64,000 nt of DNA, taken from IMG/VR virus record IMGVR_UViG_3300013936_000013, positions 13,246 to 77,245 of that record; one strand, given 5' to 3'. The position numbers were made by a program, and so were the translations under genes. This stretch comes from a virus. Lineage: Duplodnaviria; Heunggongvirae; Uroviricota; Caudoviricetes. The notes below the pieces were generated by a model. The model saw only the letters and a list, made by a program, of their open reading frames with translations. It did no database searches and was not told the origin of the DNA. This document shows positions 4,869 through 28,767 of this stretch, in pieces (the stretch's first letter is position 1; each line of letters begins with the position of its first letter).

Positions 4869-5534
4869 TTACCACAGATATTTCTGCATCTTTTTGTGCT
4901 GGCGGTAACAGTGGGCGAGAATCTGGGTTTCAATCAAAACGTCCTCAAGACCAGTGTGCTTTTCAGTAAAATCCGCTTCACCGCTAATATAGCGGTACAG
5001 AATTTCAGCGGTCTTTCTTACCTGTCCGTTAGCGCACACATAGCCATTTTCTTTACACCACTTAATGTAGGTAGGTTGCTTACAAATGGTAGATTGTGCC
5101 ATTTTCATAGTGTCCATGAATCGAGTGCCGTAGGGGAAAAAGTAACGCTGCTTCGAGGAAGTTTCATAGCGTAAAGTCACATGGGTAGAACGATAATCAA
5201 ACCGTGCATTGTGAGCGCAAACATCGGTGATATGATACTTTTTCATCAAAGTCCAAACCGCCTGCCGAATCTGGTAGAGAGTAGCCATCTTGCGTTCACC
5301 CGCCCAAATCTGTTCCCAATACTGGGGAATTTTGTTGGCGTAGTATGCGGATTGCATCAAATCCGCACAGCCTTTGAAAATATCCTTGTTTACAAAGCTG
5401 GCGGTTTCATACACATTGCCATGAGTGTCAACAACTGCACAGCCAAGGTCATACAGCAGGGGGTCATTCAAACCGTTGGCGGTTTCAGTGTCAATCATCA
5501 GAATGTAGTGACGGCGGAAATCAATGTTGTTCAT
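4869..5534 (-). CDS. DEDDh 3'-5' exonuclease (DnaQ/epsilon-like)
   Basis: Exo motifs IDTET, AHNARFD, DTMKM, HTGLED. Confidence 0.85.
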   Translation of the reverse strand: MNNIDFRRHYILMIDTETANGLNDPLLYDLGCAVVDTHGNVYETASFVNKDIFKGCADLMQSAYYANKIPQYWEQIWAGERKMATLYQIRQAVWTLMKKYHITDVCAHNARFDYRSTHVTLRYETSSKQRYFFPYGTRFMDTMKMAQSTICKQPTYIKWCKENGYVCANGQVRKTAEILYRYISGEADFTEKHTGLEDVLIETQILAHCYRQHKKMQKYLW

Positions 5535-24958: not shown

Positions 24959-26146
24959 ATGCCTACATATTCTGGTGTATATAAAGTTTGTGCTAGATGT
25001 AATCGCAAACTTAAAGAAGAAAATTTTTATACGATGAAGACTGGCGGAAGAGCAGACCTTTGTAAAGAATGCTTAACCGCACATATTGATAATTTTGATC
25101 CAAGTACTTTTCTTTGGGCTCTTGAAAAAATGGATGTTCCTTATATCCCTGGCGAATGGAACGTATTAAGAGATAGAGCTTATAATAAAGACCCAAAAAA
25201 GATGAATGGTATGTCTGTTTTTGGTAAGTATCTTTCTAAGATGAAATTAAAACAATGGAAAGATTATGGCTGGGCTGATTCTGAAAGACTTCAAGAGGAA
25301 GCTGGAGAAAAAGCAGCTAAAAAAGAAGAAGAGAAAAAAGAGTTTGAAAAAGATTTAAAAGAGCGGCATGAGAGTGGTGAGATTTCAGATGCGGAATATC
25401 TTACCTACATGAGCACAGAAAGTTAGAATGATGAATATATCAATAACTTATCTCAACAAGATGTTGTTGGAGCAAATAATTATTTCCGTGAAGAGAATTA
25501 TATTGATTAGTCTGAGCTTCCTGATCCTGCCGCACAATTAACTCAAGAAGATAAAATCTATCTTGCAATGAAGTGGGGTAGACTTTATAAGCCTGATGAA
25601 TGGGTCACTTTGGAACAAAAGTATACAGATATGAAAAAGTCTTTTACTATTAATGATTCTGATTCTGAAAGTGCTTTGATTCTTATTTGCAAAACTTATT
25701 TGAAGATGAATTAGGCGGCTGATGCAGGTGATTATGACACCTTCCAGAAGCTATCTCGCGTTTATGATTCTTTGCGTAAAGGCTCTAAGTGGACAGCCGC
25801 ACAAAACAAAGAAGGCAAATCTGATGCTGTTGATTCTGTTGGCGAATTAGTGTTGATGTGTGAAAAATAGGGTTTTATTCCTCGTTACGTAACTAATATT
25901 CCTCAAGATAAAGTTGATTAGACTCTTGCGGATATGAATAAATATGTTTATAACTTAGTTACTAAAGATTTAGGTCTAGGTCAATAGATTGAAACTCAGT
26001 TAAAGAAAATGAAAATCCATGAAGAAATGGAGCATGATGAAGAGACTGGTAACACTTAGCTTACTGACCAAGACCATGAGGATTTTTATAAAAGTGTTTT
26101 TGCTCAGCGTCGTAGAGATAATAATGCGATTGAGGAGGATATCTAA
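24959..26146 (+). CDS. Probable terminase small subunit (N-terminal Zn finger; code 15, 395 aa)
   Basis: CARC...CKEC; TAG read-through to a TAA overlapping the ATG of the large terminase; position. Confidence 0.7.
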
Positions 26147-28767
26147 TGGCACTTGCAGATTTATTGGCTCTTGCGGATTCAAAAGAGTTAAAGAAATAGG
26201 ATTTAACTGAAGAGCGCATTTAGGCTTGTATCCCTGTTTTGCGGTAGTATGTAGCCTTTTGGCGTGAATATCCTGATATTTTTGTTGATTTCCTTTGTGG
26301 TGGAGATAATGCGGGTCCAGAGACCCTGCATTTATTCTTTTACCAAAGAGTATTCTTGCGGGCAGCTATGCGGCATCGTCAAGTCTACGCAACCTTTCCG
26401 CGCGCTTATTCTAAGTCTTTTCTGTCGGTTCTAATTCTAATGTTACGTTGTATTTTGTTCCCTGGCTCTGACTTATTCGTTACTACTGGTGGTAAAGAGC
26501 AAGCTGCAAGTATTACAAAAAGTAAGGTTGAAGAGTTATGTAAATTAATTCCTGGCTTAAAAAATGAGATTAACTGGGACAGAGGACAATCTAAGACTTC
26601 TAAAAATGCTGTTGAATATATTTTTAAAAATGGAAGTAAACTTAATATTCTAGCCGCTACATAGGCATCACGTGGTCAGCGTCGAGTCGGAGGACTAATC
26701 GAGGAGTGTATCTTGGTTGACTAGGATACTCTGAACGAAGTTATCATTCCTACAATGAACGTCGACCGTCGGCTTCCAGATGGCACCCGTCATAAAGAAG
26801 AGGTCACGAACAAATCCCAGATTTATGTCACGACCGCCGGATGGAAGAACTCGTTCGCTGGACTTATTATCGTCATAGGCGAACTAAAACTGTGTGAACT
26901 CTAAAAATAGAGGTGTGAATTAATATTTATTAATTTGCTAATGGTGAAAGTATAATTAGATAATTATATAACGCTATGCCAAGCTATTATAGAAATATAA
27001 TAGAAGGTTCAGAGACTATCGAAAGCTATGTTGCTAAATATAAGTGAGTAGAGTAGGGGTTTAATGAGATGTAAGCCCCCAAGCGCACAGAATCTAAAAA
27101 TTTTTGGACAAAAATAAAAATGAGTGATAAGCAAAAAATCAATTACTTATGAAAGCAAAAATAATCGAAAAATAAAGGAGATTATATTATGGAAGAATGG
27201 AAAGTAATTGATTTTGCAACAAATTATGAAGTGTCTAATCTAGGACACATTAGAAATCGCACTACAAAAAAAGTGTTGAAAGGACGAGATACTAAAAGTG
27301 GTTATCTTCAAGTCTCATTAAAATTAAATAGTACAAATAAATTCTAGAATTAGTATATACATCGTGTAGTTGCTTTGATATGGATCCCTAATCCTGAAGA
27401 AAAAAAAGAAGTAAACCATATTGATGGCAATAAAACTAATAATGAGATTTCTAACCTAGAATGGGTGACAAATAGTGAAAATCAACTTCATAAAACTCAT
27501 ATTTTAAAAAAGACAGTAACAAGCAATAGAAAAATTGGAATGTTCTCTAAAGAAGGAGAACTAATTAAAGAATTTAATTCTGTTGTAGAAGCTGGTGCTT
27601 ATTTTGGGAAAAGCAGAATCAATATTGATAATGCTTTAAAGCATAAGCAGAATTAGCAAACTGCTTATGGATTTGTTTGGAAATATTTAGATTAAGAAAT
27701 AGTCCATTTTATAAAACTATAAAATATATGAAAAATTAATCGAGACCCTTGTTAAATAGGTGCTAAATCCAGGCGAAGCTATGATCTTGGGCGGTACTTA
27801 TAAAATTCCAGTTATGGAAGAATTATTAAGCAAGAGCTTCGTTCAAGACCTAAAGTTAGACGGCACTTATAACGATTCTTCGTTTTCAAGAGAATATGAA
27901 TCTGAGTGGTCTGGCGATGCAGAAAATGCATTCTTCTCAGCTGAAACATTTGATAAATATAGAGTGTTATTATAGCCTGAGTATGAATCTAGTGGACGCT
28001 CTTCTAAAAATGCTTATTATATTCTTGGAGTTGACGTTGGTCGTATCGGATGCACAACTGAGGTATGTGTCATCAAGGTAACCCCGCAACCGCAAGGCTC
28101 AGCATTAAAATCCTTAGTTAATATTTACACTTGGGAAGAAGAAGATTTTGAAGCTCAAGCTATCAATCTAAAGAAACTTTATTATAAATATAAAGCAAGA
28201 TAGATTGTTATTGATGCTAATGGTTTAGGTGTTGGTCTAGTTGACTTTATGACAAAAGTATAGATTGATAATGAGACAGGCGATGAGCTTCCAGCTTTCG
28301 GTGTTTCAGGAGGCACTGCCGCAGATACAAATGATTTGTATAAAAAGATTCGTGGTGCTGATGTAGAAGAAAACGCTATGTATTTAATGAAAGCTAATGC
28401 ACCCATCAACACTGAAGCGCATACCTATGTTTAGACTTAGCTTTCTAGCGGACGTGTAAAATTCTTAATTGATGAGAACTAGGCTCAAGTTAAATTAATG
28501 TCTACTAAAGTTGGTCAATAGATGGATGCAGATAAGCGGGCAGAGCATTTGAAGCCATTTACTTTAACTACAATTCTTCGTGAATAGATGCTTAATCTAG
28601 TGGAAGAAAATGAAGGCGTTAATATCATCTTAAAGCAGTCTTCCCGCGGTATTAAGAAAGATAAATTCTCAGCTTTTGAATATGGTATGTATTATATCAA
28701 ATTAGAAGAAGAGAAACGCCGTAAACATAAGGCATCCCGCCTATCAGATTTTATGTTCTTTACTTAA
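26146..28767 (+). CDS. terL: Terminase large subunit, join(26146..26859,27727..28767), code 15, 584 aa
   Basis: ATPase PRAYSKSF and LIEEC, YVTTAG; nuclease ILGVDVGR, IVIDANGLG, KKDKFSA; exons join in frame as TTAGWKNSFA|YEKLIE. Confidence 0.9.
26860..27726 (+). mobile_element. Group I self-splicing intron in terL
   Basis: P1: exon GTTCGCT pairs with GGCGAAC (26878-26884) with U.G at the splice site. P10: TCATA (26873-26877) pairs with exon TATGA. P7: GACTAT (27014-27019) with ATAGTC (27699-27704). P9 hairpin 27706-27725. Confidence 0.9.
27189..27695 (+). CDS. Intron-encoded NUMOD4-HNH homing endonuclease (I-HmuI-like; code 15, 168 aa)
   Basis: MEEWKVI..YEVSNLGHIRN (NUMOD4), IHRVVA, VNHIDGNKTNNEISNLEWVT (HNH), C-terminal NUMOD1-like AYGFVWKY; 3 TAG; TAA overlaps the intron S element. 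Confidence 0.9.

Follow-up and report, generated by a model that had tools for sequence, protein, structure and literature searches.

Organization of the terL locus

The DNA analyzed here is a stretch of 64,000 nucleotides (hereafter the window), which belongs to a gut phage with a complete genome in which TAG encodes glutamine. The virus record of the window is 141,245 bp long and has a completeness rating of 100%, and the reading of TAG as Gln is evident from the in-frame TAG codons of both the terminase gene and the intron open reading frame (ORF), which align with Gln or sense positions. The large terminase gene (terL) of this phage is interrupted by a group I intron that carries a homing endonuclease gene of its own, with the following layout.

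26146..26859, + strand: terL exon 1; 238 codons, five in-frame TAG codons read as Gln, ending in ...TTAGWKNSFA
26860..27726, + strand: group I intron; 867 nt, subgroup IA-like architecture, interrupting terL (large terminase)
27189..27695, + strand: HNH homing endonuclease gene; 168 codons, three in-frame TAG codons read as Gln, located in loop L8 of the intron
27727..28767, + strand: terL exon 2; 346 codons plus stop, nine in-frame TAG codons, starting with YEKLIE

The end of exon 1 falls just past the VTTAG stretch of the protein and, at more than 60 loci, corresponds to residue 238 of a TerL encoded without an intron. Exon 2 gives a weak Pfam match to Terminase_6C, and tblastn relates it to YonF/SPbeta-type terminases. 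Pfam matches within the intron ORF are NUMOD4 (2.1e-12), HNH_3 (1.7e-12) and, weakly, NUMOD1 (0.0028).

Splice sites and terminal nucleotide of the intron

The preliminary description of this DNA had placed the 5' splice site after U26859 and the start of exon 2 at 27727, and both assignments hold. The 5' site is set by P1, a helix of 7 bp that includes a U26859·G26878 wobble and covaries among sister introns at the same site. The start of exon 2 is set by P10 (UAUGA/UCAUA) together with restoration of the reading frame TTAGWKNSFA|YEKLIE, and both intronless relatives and covariation agree with it. Use of exon 2 as a query of IMG/VR yielded 80 related loci. Among these, more than 60 intronless relatives have exon-1 residue 238 contiguous with exon-2 residue 1 (FA|YE) with zero gap; for example, the intronless loci L002 and L003 (97% identity) read ...TTTGCG|TATGAAAAG. 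Joining 26859 to 27727 produces ...TTAGWKNSFA|YEKLIE... through the codons GCU|UAU, and the ligated-junction sequence predicted for the window intron is TTCGCT|TATGAAAAATTAATCGAG.

Since P10 covaries with the first bases of exon 2, the 3' splice site lies directly after 27726. The last intron base is thus A27726 on the + strand, directly 3' of the P9 hairpin as had been claimed, and the guanosine that is expected at this terminal (omega) position of group I introns is lacking. Nor does a nearby G provide a usable end. Ending the intron at G27730 would give GCU AAA AAU UAA, with an in-frame stop two codons beyond the junction, as the preliminary description had also stated. G27702 was considered as a terminal G as well and was rejected, as the resulting reading (UCC AUU UUA UAA) runs into a stop.

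We also performed an unbiased junction search that accepts every splice-site pair reproducing the reference protein. For the window type this search returned two options, U26859/A27726 and C26858/U27725, neither of which has a terminal G. The second option, in which the 5' cut would follow C26858 and U27725 would be the last intron base, yields GCA|UAU and an identical protein, and it is the sole other junction to do so. However, it forfeits the conserved U·G wobble as well as the stacking register of P10 on P1, and neither of its ends is canonical. In the sister introns that end in G, the homologous register with U at -1 and G at omega, which is the canonical one, fits exactly. We therefore regard these shifted sites as very improbable. 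A single joint of 26858 to 27726 in X20 (GCA|UAU, about 93% identity) was considered as a spliced RNA and proved to be an intronless relative. Logan contigs from four runs were likewise relatives, diverged by 5-12%. Among the runs listed as containing this phage, none was of RNA.

Secondary structure and covariation of the ribozyme

We collected 25 introns at terL site 238, of which 16-21 are distinct, and aligned their cores after removal of the L8 insertions. Pairing and covariation were tabulated over 15 distinct site-238 sister introns. The structural elements of the window intron are as follows.

26853..26884, + strand: P1; exon strand GUUCGCU (26853-26859) and guide GGCGAAC (26878-26884), seven pairs with a loop between
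26873..26877, + strand: P10 guide strand UCAUA; five pairs with exon-2 UAUGA (27727-27731), adjoining P1
26890..26896, + strand: P3 5' strand CUGUGUG; pairs with CGCACAG (27084-27090), paired in 15/15 sisters, in agreement with RNAalifold
26899..26938, + strand: two hairpins between P3 and P4 (26899-26912 and 26915-26938), compensatory changes in both, followed by a J3/4-like CUAA
26941..27008, + strand: P4-P5-P6 domain with covariation; P4 26941-26946/26972-26977, P5 26950-26969, P6 26978-27008
27009..27018, + strand: J6/7 and P7 5' strand, UCAG-A-GACUA; invariant in 15/15 sisters, both omega-G and omega-A
27019..27083, + strand: P7.1 and P7.2 hairpins (about 27025-27047 and 27056-27079) between P7 and P3', with compensatory changes in RNAalifold
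27091..27098, + strand: P8 5' strand AAUCUAAA; pairs with UUUAGAUU (27686-27693), with the ORF in L8
27694..27705, + strand: J8/7 (AAGAAA) and P7 3' strand UAGUCC; aligned to the RF00028 consensus AAGAUAUAGUC
27706..27725, + strand: P9/P9.0 hairpin AUUUUAUA-AAAC-UAUAAAAU; 8 bp, RNAfold -1.9 kcal/mol

Of the 15 distinct sisters, 14-15 can form P1, P10, P3, the two hairpins after P3, P4 and P8, compensatory changes included. For example, the P1 pair 26853/26884 occurs as GC, CG, AU and UG and the pair 26857/26880 as GC and CG (14-15 of 15 sisters paired). In P10, 27729/26875 is UA in ten sisters and CG in four, and 27730/26874 is GC in seven, CG in four, AU in two and GU in one. P3 shows 2-4 pair types at three positions. 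When five ORF-less members were folded with RNAalifold, P1, P3, P4, P5, P6, P7.1, P7.2 and P8 were recovered independently, and double changes preserve 25 of the 67 pairs in that fold. P7 reads G(A)GACUA/UAGUCC in every site-238 member aligned. Following the C262/A263/G264-C311 pattern of Tetrahymena, we take G27014-C27704 to be the guanosine-binding pair and A27013 to be bulged. The P9/P9.0 hairpin directly abuts P7 at its 5' end and omega at its 3' end.

The conserved core of a group I intron is thus present, with P3, P4, P6 and P8 seen by covariation, the P3/P7 pseudoknot formed and P7 invariant, and the architecture of the window intron is fully group I. It is also subgroup IA-like. The segment from the P7 5' strand to P3' folds into two hairpins in 15/15 sisters, and P7.1/P7.2 hairpins of this kind are the signature of subgroup IA, a criterion that reportedly originates with Michel and Westhof in 1990. 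The hairpins between P3 and P4 are unusual in position, since a J3/4 of 3 nt is the rule at that point in group I introns. Most site-238 members have no P2 separating P1 from P3; L231 is the only one that has it.

In the Infernal classification that had been proposed as a check, RF00028 matches the window intron at 26941-27018 over P4-P6, J6/7-P7 and GGUUCAGAGACUA; this partial match scores 20.6 bits and stays below the gathering threshold of 50 bits. At the gathering threshold, Rfam finds nothing on the window or the whole genome. The ORF-less sister L177 is matched end-to-end with 34.9 bits (E 2e-5). As RF00028 fits some subgroups poorly, its low score counts little against the covariation.

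The final codons of the HNH ORF (YLD-stop) double as the P8 3' strand, and this sequence is retained in ORF-less sisters. In the ORF-less omega-G introns of L099 (2385-2642, + strand) and L269 (5418-5680, - strand), P8 is closed by a loop of 5-13 nt. A stretch 3' of the P8 5' strand, AAAAAUUUUUGGACAA, is conserved in the ORF-bearing members (window 27100-27188). It is still present in the ORF-less L108 and occurs in an altered version, AAAAAUUUUUAGAUAU, in L177; by this retained motif both look like ORF-deletion derivatives. The motif may have a role in expression of the endonuclease.

A terminal adenosine in sister introns

At the omega position, about 16 of the distinct site-238 introns have G and five have A. 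The five distinct omega-A introns are the window type and those of L177/L125, L097, L134 and L191, with those of L177 (323 nt; 1567-1889, - strand) and L097 (289 nt; 4904-5192, + strand) being ORF-less. At the aligned position, omega-G sisters read, for example, ...AAAATG|TATGAT in L063 and ...AATAATG|TACGAG in L066. P10 varies within the omega-A set (UAUGA/UCAUA, UACGA/UCGUA, UACAA/UUGUA and UAUCA/UGAUA) and all of these variants pair. The five host phages have TerL identities of 62-77% to one another, and some of them use the TAG=Gln code while others do not. Their exons are open across the available length and the HNH ORF is intact wherever it is present. Given that four further diverged introns at the same site end in A, this intron family appears to tolerate a change that is usually considered crippling.

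Alternatively, the true end could be G, and the A at 27726 could have come from faulty sequencing or assembly, or from an allele carried by a small minority. The A state is indeed known from contigs and not from raw reads. However, a look at relatives, which the preliminary description had proposed, recovers the same A in the IMG/VR contigs L001/L113 and in the ENA contig L272, and four other clearly distinct introns at this site also end in A, which makes an error scarcely credible. The window, L001 and L272 are closely related and therefore amount to about two haplotypes and not to three independent lineages. The presence in terL of a group I intron that ends in A is thus backed by intronless homologs, by P1 and P10 covariation, by three records and by the register of the omega-G sisters.

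As a control, the same junction search was applied to introns at eight other terL sites (near residues 88, 118, 183, 188, 201, 231, 295 and 404), where a protein-equivalent junction with omega-G was always found. At a further site, near residue 298 in L116, the alignment was too poor for a call, and this site lies outside the control set. Because all eight control sites permit G, its absence is a property of the five site-238 introns specifically and does not stem from the method. Viral contigs were also scanned with the guide sequence, and bacterial genomes with the P8/P7 motif; the matches were chance ones only, and no further same-site intron came to light. Among cultured phages the intron is absent from isolates, and the only matches are to a 67-nt core in Flavobacterium phages.

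No change among the aligned core columns of the site-238 introns tracks the identity of omega. P7 is the same in the omega-G and omega-A classes, so there is no compensation in the core. Similarly, the guanosine-binding pair is G-C in all omega-A sisters and has not been re-specified to an A-U pocket, and the terminal A is therefore uncompensated. The P9 hairpin does differ between the classes: it is 6-8 bp long and flush with both P7 and omega in 5/5 omega-A introns, and eight omega-G sisters have a linker of 4-10 nt in its place. This association comes from few lineages and is a hint. The core tree requires at least three omega changes, yet the AU test does not reject omega-A as a single clade (p = 0.37); with the intron tree poorly resolved, separate origins of A are not established. 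Whether it arose once or several times, omega-A is compatible with persistence through substantial divergence.

Mobility of the intron and other insertions in terL

Comparison of the window with its closest omega-A relatives defines one further feature.

26767..28145, + strand: near-identity island of 1,379 nt, in which the L001/L272 haplotype shows one difference from the window

Besides the intron, the island takes in 93 nt of exon 1 upstream and 419 nt of exon 2 downstream, and is therefore asymmetric, while the exon sequence flanking it is 3-6% diverged. By its sequence pattern the island is probably a homing co-conversion tract. The intron is also optional, being missing from L002 and L003 at 97% identity, so that it combines optional presence with what appear to be co-converted exon flanks, as a homing intron would. 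Near identity within diverged flanks points to recent homing of an omega-A copy, in which case this copy would have moved into another genome, which persisted afterwards.

These observations bear on whether omega-A introns splice at all. They could be splicing-dead, with terL reduced to a pseudogene in defective or decaying phages, given that omega-G is held to be essential for the second step and that ligated-exon RNA has not been seen. Against this, terL is essential, the exons are open in all five omega-A hosts with intact HNH ORFs, and the genome of the window is rated complete. Furthermore, P1, P3 and P10 still pair despite lineage-specific changes within the omega-A set, an omega-A copy has spread lately between haplotypes, and splicing failure would demand the death of five lineages at 62-77% TerL identity. 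We judge this explanation to be quite improbable.

Insertions in terL are not confined to site 238. They also occur near residues 88, 118 (two types), 183, 188, 201, 231, 295 and 404, and the loci of this hot spot are L042, L097, L074/L075, L093, L138, L152, L110, L116, L221, L039/L040 and L079. In places there are three to five introns per terL gene, with at least four in L097 and at least three in L042. Just 5' of the omega-A intron of L097, the same terL holds another group I intron (L097:4606-4821) that is canonical and full-length, with an RF00028 score of 100.5 bits. For the intron near terL residue 119 (L093, L097 and L152), a junction with C instead of U before the 5' splice site together with omega-G reproduces the protein; in L093 and L097 no other such junction exists, and in L152 it ties with two others.

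Discussion

To our knowledge, omega-G is treated as universal and catalytically required in group I introns, with few natural exceptions. One of these is the Cbu.L1917 intron in the 23S rRNA of Coxiella burnetii, which Raghavan et al. reportedly described in 2007 as ending in omega-A and self-splicing. It is a bacterial group I intron that, like the window intron, has no canonical omega-G; it differs in that it occupies an rRNA gene of a bacterium, belongs to another subgroup and, instead of varying across a family, is fixed in a single species. An engineered Tetrahymena ribozyme also uses A at the 3' terminal position, as Michel et al. in 1989 and Been and Perrotta in 1991 are said to have combined G264A:C311U with G414A. 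In that ribozyme the binding pair was changed to A-U, whereas in the window intron it stays G-C.

The T4 td (I-TevI) and Twort orf142 introns are phage self-splicing introns of subgroup IA2 in conserved protein genes. They resemble the window intron in their P7.1/P7.2 hairpins and in a looped-out homing endonuclease ORF, but have omega-G and a P2 between P1 and P3. In contrast, the site-238 family is mostly without P2, has two hairpins between P3 and P4, carries its ORF in L8 and includes five omega-A members. The Twort IA2 intron has been mentioned previously (PMC10136302), and terminase genes are a recognized class of intron targets (PMC3984707).

A natural omega-A intron whose exons are ligated in vivo is the hexacoral mitochondrial ND5-717 group I intron, examples of which occur in Stichodactyla haddoni and Ricordea yuma (PMC8146996, PMC6545197). 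It shares with the window intron both the natural terminal A and a large P8 insertion. However, ND5-717 is mitochondrial, strictly vertical and obligatory, with host genes in P8, whereas the window intron, with its HNH gene, is a mobile element of a phage and has close same-site sisters that still end in G. Natural omega-A was thus already known, from ND5-717 and reportedly from Coxiella L1917, and the window intron joins this rare kind. We found no earlier report of omega-A in a phage intron in the literature examined.

Taken together, the comparative sequence data make it likely that the window contains a mobile IA-like group I intron with a heritable and tolerated omega-A. The sequences themselves show its boundaries, its terminal A, its helices, the unaltered pocket, the recurrence in five phage lineages and a recent horizontal spread. 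That the intron splices, and how it accommodates A, is what we infer; for splicing we rely on the essential nature of terL, the intact exons and HNH ORFs, the pairing constraints kept within the omega-A set, the recent spread of omega-A and the precedent of ND5-717. In the first step, the P7 pocket, unaltered in its G27014-C27704 pair and its bulged A27013, would receive exogenous guanosine, which would cut after U26859, positioned by P1 as a U·G wobble. In the second step, the 5-bp P10 and the P9/P9.0 hairpin would put A27726 at the usual place of omega-G, and attack by exon 1 after A27726 would then yield GCU|UAU (...NSFA|YEKL...). In Tetrahymena, G414A strongly impairs exon ligation, as Price and Cech reportedly found in 1988, and by this defect an unchanged G-C pocket should bind A poorly. 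Omega-A probably carries a cost in the rate of the second step.

A second step with omega-A could need a protein helper, for example an RNA chaperone from the host or the intron's HNH protein in a maturase role, given that a weakly bound omega-A could require stabilization and that many group I introns depend on proteins in vivo (PMC3984707). However, the omega-A introns of L097 (289 nt) and L177 (323 nt) are without an ORF, so an intron-encoded maturase would not be general, and we consider dependence on a helper unlikely.

A tolerated omega-A must also be weighed against an adaptive one, in which slowed ligation would serve as a timing gate or in which side reactions that depend on omega-G, among them hydrolysis of the 3' splice site and circularization of the intron, would be suppressed. 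Persistence of A across five diverged lineages would fit such a benefit, as would the P9 hairpin that abuts omega in 5/5 omega-A introns and is lost in eight omega-G sisters. Yet most same-site sisters in similar phages have G, no further core position tracks omega, and a single origin of A is not rejected on the core tree, and we find an adaptive role improbable. With about 16 G versus five A and no other core change, the terminal A seems closer to tolerated variation than to a purpose-built control device, and the timing gate on DNA packaging through a slow second step, put forward in the preliminary description, is speculation.

Beyond simple tolerance, the omega requirement itself could be relaxed in this family. 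A strong P10 and a P9/P9.0 hairpin held between P7 and the last base may allow the second step with A in the unaltered guanosine pocket, and G and A would interchange repeatedly in nature within a mobile intron family of an essential gene, possibly with a selective effect; we hold this broader proposal to be doubtful, although conceivable. If true, a switch between G and A may mean fewer side reactions that depend on omega-G, or a slower supply of terminase.

The present findings also affect how such genes are read. A requirement for a terminal G in annotation tools or curation would put the junction of the window intron in the wrong place. In these TAG-recoded gut phages, terL is heavily broken up, with introns at nine sites or more, and is prone to miscalling. 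The main value of the site-238 introns is as a natural G/A series, in which close introns share one site and the same guanosine pocket and some members are ORF-less and only 258-323 nt long. This series could reveal how a ribozyme ligates exons without guanosine recognition.
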